Part shown: one piece after another, positions 1 through 29,004 of the stretch
Position numbering within the stretch: position 1 is the first letter of the stretch
Layout of the letters: the number at the start of each line of letters is the position of its first letter
Origin: an uncultured delta proteobacterium
GTDB taxonomy: Bacteria > Desulfobacterota > Desulfobacteria > Desulfobacterales > Desulfosalsimonadaceae
Length of the DNA stretch: 64,000 nucleotides
Direction: 5' to 3'
Assembly (NCBI GenBank): GCA_963826785.1
Contig: CAWGYD010000003.1
Location: forward strand, 320,001-384,000
Position numbers and translations under genes: made by a program
Notes under the pieces: model-generated
The model's input: the letters and a program-made list of their open reading frames with translations, nothing else
Database searches by the model: none
What the model was told of the DNA's origin: nothing

Positions 1-129
1 GAGAACGAATCCCGATTGGGAGGATTTGTATCCCGCAATCATTTAGATGGATTCCGGCTAAAAGACTGCCGGAATGACATAAAGGATGATTACGGGGGGG
101 ATACTATGCGTTAAGTTAGCGCTTATGCC
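1..129 (+). mobile_element. Right arm of TIR element (copy A, truncated by window edge) carrying the 3' end of a GIY-YIG nuclease gene
   Basis: 48-129 is near-identical to the right arm of 6999-7248; ends TTAAGTTAGCGCTTATGCC followed by CCTTGAGG of a REP half. Confidence 0.8.
2..46 (+). CDS. C-terminal fragment of a small GIY-YIG nuclease family protein (partial)
   Basis: Frame 2 reads RTNPDWEDLYPAII*, resembling the NPxWxDLY C-terminus of small stand-alone GIY-YIG proteins; only 14 residues visible. Confidence 0.65.
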   Translation, partial: RTNPDWEDLYPAII

Positions 130-390
130 CCTTGAGGGGGGTCAGGGGGGTGTTCGCCCCCGGCCATTTCCAACCCGTCGGAACAATTTATTCCAAAACA
201 GAAAAGCCCATCGGCTTTTTTAACAGTGTCCATCCACGAATGAGATAATTTGTTCAAGTTCAAGGAAGGCGAAAATTTTAACCGCAGGAATACTCAAGGT
301 ATTTTGAGGATTAAAATTTGAGCCTGACGCAGAAATTGGGCAAATTAGCCATTTGTGGATGGACACTAACCAAGATGAAAGGAGAACGAC

Positions 391-903: not shown

Positions 904-3553
904 ATGGGGATAGCCGAATACCGAAAGAAACGGGATTTTGAAAAAACCCCGGAACCCGAAGGAGAGATCCGTCCCCCGGGTTCCGGGCGGCTCTATGTGA
1001 TCCAGAAGCATGCCGCCACCCGCCTGCATTACGACCTGCGCCTGGAGCTCAACGGATATCTCAAAAGCTGGGCGGTTCCCAGGGGGCCCAGCTTCGACAC
1101 CCGGGAAAAGCGGCTGGCCGTCCACGTGGAGGACCATCCCGTGGCCTACGGCACCTTCGAAGGGATCATCCCCAGGGGCGAATACGGCGGCGGCACCGTG
1201 ATGCTCTGGGACCGGGGAGAATGGGAGCCCCAGCATGATGCCGAAAAGGACTATGAAAAGGGCCATCTCAAGTTCATCCTGTATGGGGAAAAGCTCAAGG
1301 GCCGCTGGGCGCTCATCCGGATGGGGGGCAGCGGCAACGAAGAGGGGAAAAACTGGCTGCTGATCAAGGAAAAGGATGAATTTGCCGCCGCCGGAAATGA
1401 CGGCGGTCTTTCTCCGGCAGAAGACGACCGAAGCGTGCTGACGGACCGTTCCATGGAGGAAATCCGGAAAGCCGGGGATGCGGTGTGGCAAAACGGAGCG
1501 GTCACGGCCGCCCCCGATGCGCAGGAAGCCAAAACCCCGTCCGAAAATCAGCCCCGCGCCTCCGGAATTGAACCGGACATCGATCCGGGCGGCCTCGCCC
1601 ATGCCGAAAAGTCCGATATGCCCACCGATCTTCGCCCCCAGCTGGCGACCCTGGTGGACCGGGTGCCGGAAGGGGGCCAGTGGGTGCACGAAATCAAGTA
1701 CGACGGCTACCGCCTCCTGGCATACAAGGACGGCGATGCCATACGGCTGCGCACCCGCCGGGGAAATGACTGGACCGACCGGTTTGCCAAGATCGCCGCC
1801 GATCTGGCGTCATTTCCCGCCGGCTCCGCCATTTTAGACGGCGAAGCCGTGGTCCAGCGGCCCGACGGCACCACCGATTTCCAGGCCCTGCAGAACCTGC
1901 TCCAGGGCATCGAATCGGGCCGGCTGATCTACTATCTCTTCGATATTCTCTACTGCGACGGATACGATCTCACCGCCGCCCCCCTTATCGCGCGCAAGAA
2001 CCTGCTGGCCCACCTGTCGGGAAAAGTCGACCCGCAAAAATCCTGCCTGCGCTACAGCGATCATGCCCGGGGGCAGGGCCAGTCCATCTATCGGCATGCC
2101 TGCGCCCTGGCCCTGGAAGGGATCATCTCCAAGCACGAAAACAGCACGTATCAGCAGAAACGCGTCCGCAGCTGGCTCAAGGTAAAATGCCAGCACCGGC
2201 AGGAGTTCGTCATCGGCGGGTACACCGATCCTTCCGGGTCCCGCACCGGGTTCGGGGCGCTTTTGCTGGGATACTATGATGAGGCCGACCGGCTGCGGTT
2301 CTGCGGCAAGGTGGGCACCGGGTTCAACGAACGGCAGCTTGACCGGCTCAAAACGGAAATGGAGCGCTATGACGGCGCCGGCGCCGCCCTTTGCGAACCC
2401 GCCGGCCGGCCGGGAGGCCAAAGGCGTGCACTGGGTGCAACCGGAACTGGTGGCCGAAATCGAATTTGCGGAATGGACCCGGGAGGATATTCTGCGGGCA
2501 CCGTCTTTCAAGGGGCTGAGGGAAGACAAATCCGCCCGGGAGGTCCGCCGGGAGACCGGGCTGGTAAAAGACGCGCCGGAAAAACAACCGGATTTAGATA
2601 AATCCCCAAAGGAGACCGTCATGGAAAGCAGCCCAGGACAGGCCGGCGGCGACCGGGTTTCCGGCGTGCGCCTGACCCATCCGGACCGGGTGCTCTACCC
2701 CGAGCAGGGGGTGACCAAGCTGGCCCTGGCCCGATATTACGAAAAAATAGCCGCATACATGATCCCGCACATCAAGGGCCGCCCCCTGACCCTGGTCCGC
2801 TGCCCCCGGGGAAGGGAAAAAGAATGCTTCTACCAGAAGCATTTCACCGAGGCCATGCCCGAACACCTCCGGGGAGTGGAAATCGCGGAAAAAAAAGGGG
2901 TCGACACCTATGTGGTGGCAGACGACGTCCGGGGGCTGATCAGCCTGGTCCAGATGGGGGTGCTGGAAATCCACCTGTGGAACTGCCGGGAAGACAAGAT
3001 CGAACGGCCGGATCTGATGATCATGGACCTGGACCCGGGACCGGATGTGACAATGGAGGCCGTCATCGAAGCCACCCTGATGATGCACGACCTGCTCGGT
3101 GAGATCGGGCTTCAAAGCTTTGTCAAGACCTCCGGCGGCAAGGGGTTTCACGTGGTGGTCCCCCTGGTGCGCCGGACCGGCTGGGATGAGCTCAAAGCAT
3201 TTTCCCGGGCCGTGGCCGAAACTCAGGTGAAGCGCCACCCGGACAAATTTGTGGCCACCATGACCAAAAGCCGGCGCCACGGCAAAATCTTCATCGATTT
3301 CTTCCGAAACGGCCGGGGGGCCACCAGCGTGGCCCCCTATTCCACCCGGGCCCGGCCCGGCGCGCCGGTGTCGGCCCCTTTGCGCTGGGATGAACTGACC
3401 GCAGACCTCAAACCCGATGCCTACCGGACCGACAACCTGATCCACCGGATGGCGGCCCTGACGGAAGACCCCTGGAACGATTTTTTTGCCCCCTCCCAGT
3501 CGATCACCCGGAAAATGAAGCAGGCGGTGGGGATGAAAGATGTCCGGAGCTGA
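904..3553 (+). CDS. ligD: DNA ligase D (phosphoesterase-ligase-polymerase), +1 frameshift near 2368
   Basis: QKHAATRLHYDLRLE (PE), EIKYDGYR and EGIISK (ligase), DLDPG and KTSGGKGFH (polymerase); split across ORFs 904..2601 and 2276..3553. Confidence 0.92.
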
Positions 3554-6648: not shown

Positions 6649-6692
6649 TCTCCCGTCGGCCCGCGAAGGGGGGAACCGAACGCCCAAGGGGA

Positions 6693-6746
6693 TATTGGAA
6701 TGATGGAATGATGGGATGATGGGATGATGGGATGGGGGGATGGGGG
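6693..6746. repeat. Short tandem repeat (TGATGGRA)n
   Basis: TGGAATGATGGAATGATGGGATGATGGGATGATGGGATG; same unit as 28826-28980. Confidence 0.75.
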
Positions 6747-6998
6747 CCGGTTCCGGGAGGAATTCAACCGCCTGTGCGGGCAGCTGGGGGTATGAGAACC
6801 GTCGTGAATAACACCCCGAAGAACACCCCCCCTGCCCCCCCTCAAGGGGGGAATTTGGGAGGGGGTCCTCGGGGGGGGGATTTGGTATGGTTAAGGCCCC
6901 CTGTGTTCGGCTTGCACAAGGGGACCCTCCCTCAGACGGTGAATGAAAGGGCCGGCCCCCGATATTCATCCCCCCCCAACACTAATCCCCCCTTGAGG

Positions 6999-7248
6999 GG
7001 CATAGGCGCTAACTTAATGACCGATGCAATATCTTCTAATTTGTCGTTCCTCTTAAGAGCGTCATTCCGGCAGTCTTTAAGCCGGAATCCAGGAAGACGA
7101 AATGAACAGGCAACCAGCGGTATACATTCTTGCAAATAAAAGAAACGGCCCCCTTTGCTATTCATTGGATTCCGGCTAAAAGACTGCCGGAATGACATAA
7201 AGGATGATTACGAGGGGGATACTATGCGTTAAGTTCAGCGCTTATGCC
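6999..7248 (+). mobile_element. ~250-bp MITE (copy B) with GIY-YIG 5' remnant, inserted in REP hairpin centre
   Basis: TIRs GGCATAGGCGCTAACTTAA / TTAAGTTCAGCGCTTATGCC; flanked by (C)CTTGAGG on both sides; internal inverted GTCATTCCGG palindromes; mini-ORF 7102-7179 MNRQPAVYILANKRNGPL... Confidence 0.85.
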
Positions 7249-7361
7249 CTTGAGGGGGGCCAGGGGGGTGTTCCCCTCGAGGGAGGCCAGAGGACTGTTC
7301 CCCTCGATGGGCCAGGGGGGATGTCAAAAATCAACTCCAAACGCAAACGGGGAGAACAAAC

Positions 7362-10613: not shown

Positions 10614-12360
10614 TCACCCCGAAACGACGCTGCGGATGGTTTGCAGCAGTTCGTTGCGGTTGCCGCTTTTCTTCAGATAGGCGGCGGCACCCACCTGCCG
10701 GATGGCCTCGGCCTGGTCGGCGGCATCGAACATGGACAGGCCGATGATCTTGATATCGGGGTTTTCGGCATGGATGATCCGGGTCGCCTCGATTCCATTC
10801 ATCTTGGGCATGCTGATGTCCATCAGGATCAGGTCCGGGCATAGTTCCCGGGCCATTATAATCGCATCTTCGCCGTCCGATGCTTCTCCCACCACGTCGA
10901 TGTCGGGGTAATCGGAAAGGAGCAGAGAAAGGCCCTGGCGCATGACGGAATGATCATCGACCAGCATGACCCGGATGCCGGCGCCGGATTTCTCCCGATC
11001 CGCGCCGGCACTTGATGGCCGTGTTTCCGTGTCGGCGGGCATCTTCTTCTTTGGATGTGCTTTAACGGATTCCTCGTGGATGGGGGCGAGGAGGCAAACG
11101 GTGGTCCCACGGCCCGGTGAACTGTCAATCCGGCATTTTCCGCCCATGAACTGCAGCCGCTCCCGGATGCTGAACAGTCCGAATCCCGAGGCCATTTCAT
11201 CGGGTTCATCGGCGCACCGGTCCGGATCGAATCCGGCGCCGTGATCCACCACCGTGATCCGGATATGGGCGTGGTCCGGGCAGGCCAATTCAATTTCCGC
11301 CGATAAAACGTCTGCATGTTTGACCACGTTTAGCAGCAGTTCGCGAACCGAACTGAACAACAATGTTTTGATATCCTGGCGCATGGAATCGCCGCAGCCA
11401 TCTTTATCAATGAGGTTGACCGTCAACCCGTGCTTTTCGTTCATCCAGCGGACCAGCCATTGCAGCGCCCGGAGCAGGCCGCCCTCGTAAAGAACCGGCG
11501 GCGACAGTTCAACCGTCAGGGTTCGGGAGACATCCAGCGATTCCTGCATCAGGTTTGCGGCATTTTCGATGATCCGCCAGTATTCGCCTGGGACGCGCCC
11601 TTCAAGCGTTTCCAGGCTGAACCGGGCGCCGACCAGGAGCTGCTGCAGGTGGTCGTGCAGAATCTTGGCCAGACGCCGACGCTCCCGGTGTTCGGCCATG
11701 GTCAGCTCCGAAGACAGGCGGCTCAGCTGCGCTGCCCTCAACCGGAGTTCGGAATTCTTGCCCGTGAGTTCTTCGGCATAATCTTTGAGCCGGGTTTCCG
11801 TTTTTTTCAGCTCCGTCAGATCCGTCACCACCATGCAGACGGCATCGAGTTTTTCCTCGGAGCTGAAATGACGCAGGGAGACCAGGACGGGGATCAGATC
11901 CCCTCTGCCGGTCGAAAGCCGCATTTCGGCCTTGATCCCCTCTTCCCGGAACGCCCGCCGCATGAGGTCCTCCAGCGCCTTTTCGTCCTCGGGAACCGCC
12001 AGATCCGCAAGTGATCCCCCGATGACATTCTCGATGGGCATCCGGAGCATGTCTGCAAGCCGGCGATTGCAATACAGGATGATGCCGTCTTCGGACAGAA
12101 CGATGGCCCCCTCGTTCATGGTTTCGATCATGATGCGGTAGCTCTGATCCGCCCCTGCCAGCGTATAGATCTGCTCCCCTTCCGGTCCGGGGACCACCAG
12201 GGCATCCACCCGGCCGCTGCGGATGGCATCGAGCACTTCCTCGGTCTCTTCGAGGCGCTCGCGTAGCTAGTTTTACTTCCTGAATCAGATCTTCTTTTGT
12301 TTTCTCTGAATCGGTCACGTCACTTCTCATACTATCGTAAGGGGGCTTCATATGGGTCAT
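10614..12360 (-). CDS. PAS / HisKA_3 / HATPase / receiver hybrid sensor kinase, +1 frameshift near 12269
   Basis: LHDHLQQ H-box, [17 protein letters not shown], receiver LVDDH...LMDISMP; ATGA overlap with kaiB stop at 12357-12360; removing one base restores [21 protein letters not shown]. Confidence 0.88.
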
Positions 12361-12722
12361 GGCGCCTCTTTTGAATCCGGATGCCGGGGTCTTAAATCGA
12401 GTCCCACCAGGATCTTTTCCGTATCCGACAGGTCGCCGATAAATTTGCGCAAGGGAGACGGAAGTTTTTTGATCAGGGTGGGGGCGGCGATAATCTGCGC
12501 TTCCTTTCCCAGTTCCGGCTGCTGATAGATGTCGATCACTTCCAGGTCATAACGGCCCTTTAAATGGGTTTTGCAGATCTCCTTGATCTTCTGGATGGCC
12601 CGGAGGGATTTGGGGGTCATGCCGCTGACGTAAAGCCTGAGGACATAGGATTCCTGATCGTCTGGATGGCGCAGCAGCTCTTCGAATTTTTCGGTGGTGC
12701 TTTTCTCCGGCTGGTCGTTCAT
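12357..12722 (-). CDS. kaiB: Circadian clock KaiB family protein (second copy, N-terminal extension)
   Basis: YVLRLYVSG...[23 protein letters not shown]. Confidence 0.92.
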
Positions 12723-13021
12723 GTCGATCTTCCATTGTTTTCCCGAAGATCCAACCCTACCAGCACGCGCTCGGTGTTGGAAAGATCCCCGATAATCTTG
12801 CGGATGGGTTCGGGCAGCTTGCGCACCAGCGTGGGGATGGCCAGGATCTGGTCCCCCTTGGCCAGCTGCGGATTTTCCAGCAGGTCGATGACCTCGATGT
12901 GGTAGCGCCCTTCCAGGTGCTCTTCGCAGATGTTCTTCAGATTGGCAAAGGCCGTAAGCGACTTGGACGTCTGCCCGGCCACATAGAGTCGAAGATTGTA
13001 GTATTCTTTCCCGTTGTCCAC
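12719..13021 (-). CDS. kaiB: Circadian clock KaiB family protein
   Basis: LRLYVAGQT...[26 protein letters not shown] start with GGAGG RBS. Confidence 0.93.
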
Positions 13022-13050
13022 GGCCTCCCCCTTTTTTCCGATTCAAGAAT

Positions 13051-13182
13051 GATGAATCTGTAAAAAGTCCAAAGTTCGTCACTCCGGTGAAAACCGGAGT
13101 CTATAACCAACTTAGTTTGTAGTAGATTCCGGCCTCCGCCGGAATGACAAAAGCGTAAAATCCCACTTTTTACGGATTCATC
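13051..13182. mobile_element. 132-bp MITE with 18-bp TIRs and 6-bp target duplication
   Basis: GATGAATCTGTAAAAAGT / ACTTTTTACGGATTCATC; AAGAAT at 13045-13050 and 13183-13188. Confidence 0.8.
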
Positions 13183-13295
13183 AAGAATGATGAAGCCTTA
13201 AAATGCATTGTACCCCGATGCACGGAGTTTTTTCAGAAAGGAACTTTTGATCTTTTGATTGCATGAAGCCTAACACCCCCCCGGCCCCCCTCAAG

Positions 13296-13545
13296 GGCAT
13301 TACGTCTAACTTAACGCATAGTATCCCCCCCGTAATCATCCTTTATGTCATTCCGGCAGTCTTTTAGCCGGAATCCAATGAATAGCAAAGGGTGCCGTTT
13401 CTTTTATTTGCAAGAATGTATACCGCTGGTTGCCTGTTCATTTCGTCTTCCTGGATTCCGGCTTAAAGACTGCCGGAATGACGCTCTTAAGAGGAACGAC
13501 AAATTAGAAGATATTGCATCGGTCATTAAGTTAGCGCCTATGTCC
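13296..13545 (-). mobile_element. ~250-bp MITE (copy C) with GIY-YIG 5' remnant, inserted in REP hairpin centre
   Basis: Near-exact reverse complement of 6999-7248; CCTCAAG(G) on both flanks; mini-ORF 13441-13364 MNRQPAVYILANKRNGTL... Confidence 0.85.
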
Positions 13546-13572
13546 CCTCAAGGGGGGATTTGGTGTACTATT

Positions 13573-15267
13573 TCACTCCGTATCCGCCATCCTGCGATCC
13601 GCCATCTCCAGGCGGTTTTTGGAAAGGGTGTCCAGCTTTGTCGCATGATCCGACACGGTCCTTTCGATTTCTTCCTTATCGGCTTCCATCTGGAAACGCA
13701 GCGCCTCGATCCGGGATTCGATGACGCGATGCTTGCGCTCAAGCTCCCGCTTTTTGAACTCGATCTCCTTTTCCATGCGCATCACTTCCGCCTTTTCCCG
13801 GGCTTCCTGGGCGGTGCGGGCCGACCCGGTCAGCACACCGGCCGGACCGGTGTAGACATCGATCAGGTCCACGCCGCTGCCGGTGAGCAAAAATTCCCGG
13901 ACCTGGTTGGAGTGCGCCATTCCCCTGGATTTGATGATGTTGAGCACCCGGTTGCGCTCCCCCGAAGACTCGATTTCCTTCAGTATCAGCCAGGTGTCCA
14001 TCAGGGAGGAAACCCCGATATCCGTGCTTTCAAACGCCTCCCCCTGGAGGAGATGGGTGAACATGGAGGTGATCATTTTCGATTTCATCAGGTCCACCAG
14101 GCGCATGAGCGCGATTTTGACCTCTTGCGCATTCCCCACGGAGATCAGGTTGGAAATGGGGTCGAGCACCACCACCGCCGGAGAAAATTCCGTAATCGTT
14201 TTATACATCTCCGCCAGGTGCGTTTCCAGCCCGTAGAAAGTGGGGCGGATCGCCCTGAAACGCAAAAGGCCCTTTTCCTGGCATTTTTCCAGGTCGAGTC
14301 CGATGGAGTGCATGTTTCGGATAATCTGGCTGCTCGACTCCTCGAAGGCGTAATACAGGCACCGTTCATTGTTGCGGCAGGCCTCCTCTACGAAATGGCC
14401 GCAGAAACTGGTCTTTCCCGTGCCGGCCGTTCCGGAAATCAAAATACTGCTTCCCCGGAAAAACCCCTTGCCGCTGAGCATCGCATCGAGCCGGGAAATT
14501 CCCGTCGATATCCGATCCGATGAGACATCGTAGTTAAGCCCCACCGAGGTGATGGGCAAAACGGAAATCCCCCCCTCGTCGATCAGAAAGGGGTATTCAT
14601 TGGTGCCGTGGACCGTTCCGCGGTATTTCACCACCCGGAGGCGCCGGGTGGAGAGCTGATCCTTCACCCGGTGGTCGAGGACGATCACGCAGTCGGACAC
14701 GTATTCCTCCAGCCCCTGGCGGGTGAGCCCGCTTTCGGAATTCCCCCTTTCGGCGGTGATCACCGCCGTGATCCCCCGGTCCTTGAGCCATCGAAACAGC
14801 CGCCGGATCTCGGCGCGGAGGATGAATTGATTGGTAAATCCGGAAAACAGCGCCTCCAGCGTATCTAAAACCACCCGCTTGGCCCCGATGGCATCGATGG
14901 CAAATCCCATCCGGACAAAGAGCCCTTCCAGGTTGTATTCCCCCGTCTCTTCGATTTCGGAGCGTTCAACCCGGACACAGTCCAGGCTGATCTTTTTTGC
15001 CGCTTCCAGCGCTTTGAGGTCAAAACCCAGGGAGGCAAAATTGGCGGCAAGGTCGTCCTCGGATTCCTCGAAGCTCATGAACATGCCGGGCTCCCCGAAT
15101 TCCGTTGCCCCCCGGACCAGAAATTCCATTCCGAAAAGGGTCTTGCCGCTGCCCGCCCCGCCGCAGACCAGCGCCGGCCGCCCCCGGGGAAGCCCGCCAT
15201 GCGTAATTTCATCAAAACCCTTGATGCCGGAGGGCGATTTGGGAAGCATTGCGATGGGGTGATTCAT
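13573..15267 (-). CDS. kaiC: Circadian clock protein KaiC (double RecA-like domain, C-terminal coiled coil)
   Basis: Two Walker A motifs (GGAGSGKT, GTAGTGKT), FEE catalytic pairs, VSSLMDTW phosphosite region. Confidence 0.95.
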   Translation of the reverse strand: MNHPIAMLPKSPSGIKGFDEITHGGLPRGRPALVCGGAGSGKTLFGMEFLVRGATEFGEPGMFMSFEESEDDLAANFASLGFDLKALEAAKKISLDCVRVERSEIEETGEYNLEGLFVRMGFAIDAIGAKRVVLDTLEALFSGFTNQFILRAEIRRLFRWLKDRGITAVITAERGNSESGLTRQGLEEYVSDCVIVLDHRVKDQLSTRRLRVVKYRGTVHGTNEYPFLIDEGGISVLPITSVGLNYDVSSDRISTGISRLDAMLSGKGFFRGSSILISGTAGTGKTSFCGHFVEEACRNNERCLYYAFEESSSQIIRNMHSIGLDLEKCQEKGLLRFRAIRPTFYGLETHLAEMYKTITEFSPAVVVLDPISNLISVGNAQEVKIALMRLVDLMKSKMITSMFTHLLQGEAFESTDIGVSSLMDTWLILKEIESSGERNRVLNIIKSRGMAHSNQVREFLLTGSGVDLIDVYTGPAGVLTGSARTAQEAREKAEVMRMEKEIEFKKRELERKHRVIESRIEALRFQMEADKEEIERTVSDHATKLDTLSKNRLEMADRRMADTE

Positions 15268-28741: not shown

Positions 28742-28980
28742 GGGGGTTAGGGGTTAGGGGTTAGGGTAGGGTTAGGGGTTGAGGGTTGAGGGTTAGGGTT
28801 AGGGTTAAGGGTTAGGGGTTAGGGATTGATGGGATTGAGGGAGTGATGGGAATGATGGGATGAGGGTGAGGGATGATGGGGTGAGGGATTGATGGGATGA
28901 GGGAATGATGGGATTGATGGGAATGATGGAATGATGGAATGATGGAATGATGGAATGATGGAATGATGGAATGATGGGAA
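28742..28980. repeat. G-rich tandem tract: TTAGGG(G) units grading into TGATGGGA then TGATGGAA
   Basis: Read directly; no C on the + strand over ~240 bp. Confidence 0.9.
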
Positions 28981-29004
28981 ATCTTGTTTCTCCCCGGCCC
29001 CCCG

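Follow-up and report, generated by a model that had tools for sequence, protein, structure and literature searches.

Insertion sequences (IS) that break REP repeats at the palindrome axis, cassettes bounded by IS231 ends and the Ssn nuclease are already published. IS186/IS421 of Escherichia coli, a member of the IS4 family, has a 17-bp end, targets flanked by G/C runs (given as GGGG-N6/7-CCCC) and a duplication of about one helix turn (PMC5009759), and the IS231 subgroup is marked by the end signature CAT-------AA--TAA and a 10-12-bp direct repeat (PMC2266710, Table 1). A mobile insertion cassette (MIC) comprises two IS ends and a passenger CDS, carries no transposase and is moved in trans; the MIC231 cassettes of the Bacillus cereus group, 0.7-3 kb in size, enclose their passenger gene in IS231-type ends (PMC6199540). 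Among the REP-targeting IS (ISRm22 of the IS4 family, ISPsy8, ISPa11 and ISPpu9/10), a repeat is interrupted by every copy or almost every copy, in some cases at the palindrome axis, and the target site duplication (TSD) measures 6 bp for ISRm22 and 3 bp for ISPsy8 (PMC1525189). In the Ssn/SRM pair of Neisseria meningitidis (SsnA-NTS), a single-domain GIY-YIG gene lies between inverted hairpins; SsnA, whose mutated residues are Y6, Y17 and E64, cuts ssDNA just upstream of its hairpin, and the authors suggest that the module may be mobile (PMC11893778). Finally, the BoxC, PIT or TM_ECO triplex repeat of E. coli follows the class II order of C-run, loop, G-run, loop and G-run, and PMC4666352 reports no association of this motif with transposons or with remnants of transposases.

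The element described here, found in a 64,000-nucleotide stretch of DNA (the window) and throughout its source genome (G000; 4.43 Mb, 88% complete, contigs abbreviated as C3, C5 and so on), shares features with each of these systems. It has the 17-bp end, the G/C-run target flanks and the duplication of about one helix turn of IS186/IS421, but it lacks a transposase and its targets are CCC..GGG or GGG..GGG. Like MIC231 it places IS ends around a passenger gene, from which it differs in its IS186-like ends, its occurrence outside Bacillus, its size of 473 bp and its repeat-flanked nuclease cargo. It breaks a repeat as the REP-targeting IS do, yet it is non-autonomous, its target is of the BoxC/triplex type and its TSD measures 11 bp. 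Its cargo, a 96-aa single-domain GIY-YIG gene between inverted hairpins, matches Ssn/SRM, whereas here the module lies inside transposon ends and is amplified, a vehicle of which the accessible part of PMC11893778 makes no mention. The target repeat has the class II order of BoxC; by eye, its runs are pure C6 and G6 (6 nt each) instead of the CCCTCNCCC stems of the E. coli TM_ECO consensus (CCCTCNCCC...GGGNGAGGG), and we therefore call it BoxC-like rather than BoxC.

Copies, ends and target repeat

The BoxC-like repeat is laid out as ATT-C6-loop-G6-linker-G6-TGT. The window contains 54 occurrences of its core, CCTTGAGG, where 2.9 would be expected, and the genome holds about 260-350 copies of the repeat, covering about 0.2% of its length; C5-N4/5-G5 hairpins number 347. 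The intrastrand-triplex rule for class II order, with stems of at least 6 nt and loops of 1-6 (from PMC4666352), is satisfied at 259 sites in the genome and at none in a shuffled one. Beside repeat clusters, 8-bp tandem repeats built of GGAATGAT/GGGATGAT units are found at window positions 6688-6750 and 28840-28997.

Three copies of the element lie in or reach into the window (Table 1). A sequence-only reading of this DNA had noticed that all three interrupt the repeat within its hairpin loop and point the same way, which our inspection confirmed, and the three nested tiers that it had proposed, a GIY-YIG cassette within an element with terminal inverted repeats (TIRs) within a repeat, were borne out. 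The ends (GGCAT...ATGCC) and the 7-8-bp duplication that it had given required correction. Because the target consists of runs of C and G, the element boundary is ambiguous at most copies, where 7, 9 and 11 bp all fit; the copy at C5:294105, located in the G-run/G-run part of the repeat with CCC/GGG outside CAT, fits solely CAT...ATG with an 11-bp duplication and thus fixes the boundary.

Table 1. Features of the three element copies (window coordinates unless a contig is named)
Feature	Position	Strand	Remark
Copy A, full 473-bp form (G000:C3:319655-320127), right part	1..127	+	intact 96-aa GIY-YIG gene
Copy A, one duplication copy	128-138		
Copy B, 246 bp, deletion form	7001..7246	+	one extra base in right TIR
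Copy B, 11-bp duplication	6990-7000 and 7247-7257		perfect
Copy C, 245 bp, deletion form of IS186-type cassette	13298..13542	-	
Copy C, left TIR, 17 bp	13526..13542	-	one base from IS186 end
Copy C, right TIR	13298..13314	+	4 substitutions vs other copies
First half of BoxC-like repeat broken by copy C	13273..13297	+	
Copy C, duplication copy 1	13287-13297		
Second half of repeat broken by copy C	13544..13560	+	
Copy C, duplication copy 2	13544-13554		one extra base at 13543
Copy C, SRM (Ssn-related) hairpin, downstream side of nuclease gene	13347..13376	+	motif as in PMC11893778
Copy C, SRM hairpin, upstream side of nuclease gene	13453..13482	-	
Copy C, first 18 Ssn codons	13388..13441	-	remainder deleted in 245-bp form

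The genome holds 12 two-ended copies in three size classes: six copies measure 473-475 bp, five 245-246 bp and one 333 bp. Their interiors are nearly identical while their outer flanks, loop sequences and registers differ, which marks them as independent and recent insertions; the five short copies share one common 228-bp deletion junction with differing flanks. All 12 lie within the repeat, so that neither of the two outcomes by which the sequence-only reading would have been undone, a majority of copies outside repeats or identical outer flanks, was encountered. Its placement at the exact centre holds for the 11 copies in the hairpin loop, although in two registers one base apart, and not for the one in the second loop; likewise, the fixed orientation seen in the window softens genome-wide to ten forward copies, one reversed and one ambiguous (p=0.012 for 10 vs 1, with orientations read by eye). 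The copies cluster on contigs C3, C5 and C8. Four one-ended or decayed remnants were also found, with repeat-like flanks in three and not in the one at C8:22694, and a copy at G000:C8:6139-6544 combines an internal deletion with a partly duplicated right end.

The 11-bp TSD is perfect in 7/12 copies, has one mismatch in 2/12 and fits poorly in 2/12, and that of copy C is perfect bar one extra base. Three TSD pairs differ at central TCGA/TTGA/TCAA bases, for which assembly error, deamination or recombination between copies are possible explanations. In window positions 904-3553, LigD is divided between two frames that overlap, and frameshifts seem to affect several genes upstream, a pattern suggestive of long-read assembly errors; such errors could also lie behind the single-base oddities at the element ends. 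Two DNA sequencing runs, with small shares (0.06-0.07), and no RNA run are listed for this genome.

The right end of the element has the same 17 bases as the end of IS186A of E. coli K-12, and the usual left end differs by one base. Both the IS231-subgroup end signature and its duplication range accommodate the element. Through its ends and its 11-bp duplication, the element is thus placed as a non-autonomous cassette of the IS186 type (IS4 family). RefSeq lists the enzyme of E. coli IS186A as an IS4-like IS186B-family transposase. It has two IS ends and a passenger CDS and no transposase, and, with no cognate transposase found in this genome, it fits the definition of a MIC. The 12 near-identical copies with distinct TSDs point to mobilization in trans by a cognate transposase, presumably, on the analogy of the IS4 family, a cut-and-paste DDE enzyme. 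Among the loci fetched, similarity of the element to autonomous IS did not extend past the TIR, bar one Ssn-type cassette.

The sequence-only reading had also proposed a search for empty repeats at orthologous loci. At the kaiC-kaiB locus of two relatives (G018 and G014), none was seen; kaiC and kaiB abut there, so repeat and element are both missing and the 550-bp gap that holds copy C is lineage-specific. In the window this region (12357-15267) contains kaiC and two genes with kaiB domains, after which comes a gene for a PAS/histidine kinase. The same gap hosts a second and unrelated MITE of about 135 bp (13050-13184), with TGATGAA...TTCATCA ends and an internal SRM-like pair, which recurs at about 35 loci of the genome, in AT-rich sites with short duplications.

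Cargo and relatives in other genomes

The full form encodes a 96-aa GIY-YIG protein (PF01541, E=2e-14), with at least 7780 relatives at E<=1e-20, and its gene lies between two inverted GTCATTCC...GGAATCC hairpins (SRM). The residues Y8/Y19/E66 of the predicted nuclease are spaced like Y6/Y17/E64 of SsnA, a comparison of spacing and not an alignment. A small single-domain GIY-YIG protein with Tyr, Tyr and Glu and with SRM hairpins on both sides identifies this predicted module as the published Ssn/SRM pair (Ssn, cd10448). The ssn frame is intact in five copies, and the 228-bp deletion shared by the five short copies indicates that the element can do without the gene in cis. In most cases the module occurs by itself: out of 28 ssn loci fetched from order-level relatives, two lie within 260 bases of an IS186-type end. 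Of these, the one with two ends (L294) sits in a G..C target. An Ssn-carrying cassette in another genome (G133) occupies a target of another type, and the cargo does not set the target. The source genome has a second, free-standing ssn gene (G000:C4:167247-167525), 63% identical, which lacks IS ends and is paired with another type of hairpin. Among the matches listed, MITEs with IS186-type ends also exist in empty form, at 93-124 bp, and the SRM module may have entered an empty MITE of about 110 bp or replaced a transposase gene.

Searches for a cognate transposase in the 88% complete genome gave none, either with the IS186 protein (best E 0.63) or by tblastn with 19 relatives plus an HMM. Four PF01609 matches were considered and rejected as other elements, two of which (L001 and L002) look IS1634- and IS701-like by eye. 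Elsewhere, TIR ends are present in 2/40 close-relative genomes, and a protein search placed IS186-like transposases in 6/301 order-level genomes. A scan for GGG plus the TIR, biased to G-flanks, returned at least 120 loci in many phyla, and an unbiased TIR scan of metagenomes at least 125. Among the matches listed from both scans, 60 elements are two-ended, with a TSD of 11 bp in 34, 10 bp in four, 12 bp in one and none in 21, and 12 of the 60 have autonomous size (1.32-1.48 kb). The ORFs of these autonomous-size elements are 30-38% identical to the IS186 transposase and contain the DDE and YREK motifs that the cassette lacks and its relatives with the same ends possess; both of the two such transposases scored pass the IS4 model NF033592. 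Three loci from the protein search (L282, L283 and L286) have one end in a BoxC-type repeat. At L283 the element is complete, measuring 1377 bp, and has an 11-bp TSD in the second loop of such a repeat; L284, L287 and L289 have G..C targets and diverged TIRs, and at L285 no element end was found. In a transposase tree of 20 rows (three short rows left out, target labels assigned by hand, many rows from the GGG-biased scan), target classes are clustered yet need three changes. A single clade for the C..G/G..G class was rejected, with three changes in every bootstrap tree.

Among the matches listed from the unbiased scan, 127 distinct ends had enough flank for classification, of which 67 were of the IS186-like G..C class, 37 C..G/G..G/C..C and 23 neither. 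Many G..C-class ends at loci L031-L275 sit in SRM- or RAYT-type hairpins. The 48 non-autonomous elements among the matches listed, several of them from the same genome, are mostly filled with inverted repeat pairs, and their interiors fold at z<=-3 in 35/48 cases vs 2/37 controls. Sorted by eye, the 48 listed fillings comprise 13 of SRM type, 11 of BoxC type, 16 of what we take to be RAYT type, one presumably of another repeat class, and seven left unassigned; an ssn gene is present in 2/13 of the SRM-type and a DUF559 frame in 4/11 of the BoxC-type elements, two of them confirmed by Pfam. The inverted REP-type pairs in most non-autonomous elements (L031-L275) belong to several unrelated classes.

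The sole DUF559 match of the source genome (L276, G000:C5:9468-9773) has inverted copies of the target repeat on both sides, and E. coli ycjD, also DUF559, adjoins a BoxC. These gene positions make DUF559 a candidate BoxC-associated nuclease, a pairing of which no description was found in the literature searched.

Site choice and rival explanations

Of the specific targeting that the sequence-only reading had proposed, the strong site bias stands, with reading of sequence as its more probable and reading of structure as its less probable basis. Eleven of the 12 copies occupy C..G targets and one, C5:294105, a non-palindromic G-run/G-run site; none (0/12) occupies the IS186 target GGGG-N6/7-CCCC or any of the 268 non-ORF GGG-N5-CCC sites. 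Under a crude ORF mask, the repeat contains 390/2354 CCC-N5-GGG sites overall (17%) and 296/524 outside ORFs (56%), so that 12/12 insertions in the repeat have p=0.001 under this minimal rule. With runs of four bases (CCCC-N4/5-GGGG), 296/326 non-ORF sites (91%) lie in the repeat and 12/12 is unremarkable (p=0.31), in a test that is partly circular, as the longer consensus was drawn from the repeat itself. For E. coli, location of IS186 in BoxC was ruled out at all three K-12 IS186 sites, and no report of it was found in the literature searched.

We consider it probable that the element is a non-autonomous cassette of the IS186 type, mobilized in trans by a transposase that reads long G/C runs in duplex DNA, with selection adding to the pattern. 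An IS186-like DDE transposase, supplied in trans, would bind the 17-bp ends, excise the cassette and join it to the target with an 11-bp stagger, giving rise to the 11-bp duplication. Its preferred target would be a pair of long G/C runs separated by about five bases, in most cases CCC-N5-GGG, in reverse polarity to the IS186 target, and sometimes GGG-N5-GGG. Since preferred sites outside ORFs lie almost solely inside the BoxC/triplex-type repeat, insertions would pile up in the repeat loops, and the loss of insertions within genes would strengthen this bias. The SRM-ssn-SRM module would travel as cargo, in which the 228-bp deletion probably arose once, the shortened form going on to move. Against this account stand the missing cognate transposase in G000, the five imperfect TSDs out of 12, the minimal consensus, which does not explain the bias, and the symmetric target, which does not predict a 10:1 orientation. 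That last ratio would be easier to understand if the same transposase recognized either the entire three-run repeat or a structure such as a hairpin, a cruciform or an intrastrand triplex, possibly via a protein bound to the repeat, for which DUF559 is an example. Both in this genome and in other phyla, one or the other loop of the C-run/G-run/G-run motif forms the centre of the insertions; among the matches listed, a BoxC-like tract accompanies 18/37 C..G/G..G/C..C ends vs 2/67 G..C ends (controls about 1-4%), and the TSD centre falls in a predicted hairpin loop at 24/39 foreign sites vs 221/780 shuffles (28%). A dimeric transposase reading a dyad sequence would, on the other hand, yield hairpin-like targets anyway, 15 of the same 39 listed sites lie outside a hairpin loop, the transposases of this target class do not form one clade, and for the E. 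coli motif PMC4666352 reports that no triplex was observed in vivo or in duplex DNA. We judge recognition of structure unlikely.

A loose G/C preference shaped mostly by the purging of harmful insertions, making the repeat a safe harbour by selection, draws on the location of the repeat mostly outside ORFs and on the rise of its site share once ORFs are masked; it is improbable, as the bias persists outside ORFs and the non-ORF GGG-N5-CCC sites stay unused by all 12 copies. That the Ssn nuclease itself mobilizes or targets the element is in keeping with the intact gene in five copies, the cleavage of ssDNA by SsnA upstream of its hairpin and the mobility suggested for its module (PMC11893778), but the same IS4-type ends and duplication are also found around other cargo or around no cargo, such an end is close to few of the ssn loci fetched from relatives, and the locus with two ends lies in a G..C target, so that Ssn is very unlikely to drive targeting. 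Copying of one insertion by segmental duplication or by conversion between repeats could explain the clustering of copies on three contigs, and recombination between copies could cause the three TSD pairs that differ at variable loop bases; the differing outer flanks, loops and registers and the distinct TSDs largely refute it, leaving it scarcely credible.

Beyond the probable account of a cassette moved in trans, a wider proposal, doubtful as it stands, would make IS186-type ends a general cross-phylum vehicle for repeat-nuclease modules (Ssn/SRM, DUF559/BoxC-like and RAYT-type doublets), in which some transposases target the three-run BoxC/triplex repeat at either loop, cassettes home into and spread palindromic repeats, and DUF559 acts as the BoxC-associated nuclease.

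Novelty and meaning

Each part of this picture has a published precedent, which limits its weight. The literature searched contained neither an IS186-type lineage on BoxC/triplex-type repeats with reversed target polarity nor repeat doublets as the normal filling of IS186-type MITEs. The BoxC-type target across phyla and the repeat doublets as usual cargo seem to be new. Together, the element, the autonomous transposases of its relatives and the defined targets make the choice between sequence and structure targeting directly testable, and a transposase whose insertions fall in abundant intergenic repeats could serve as a useful tool. The finding names an IS lineage that lands in BoxC/triplex-type repeats, whose origin and spread were left open in PMC4666352, and it offers a concrete route by which the modules of Ssn and of DUF559 can be amplified and transferred.
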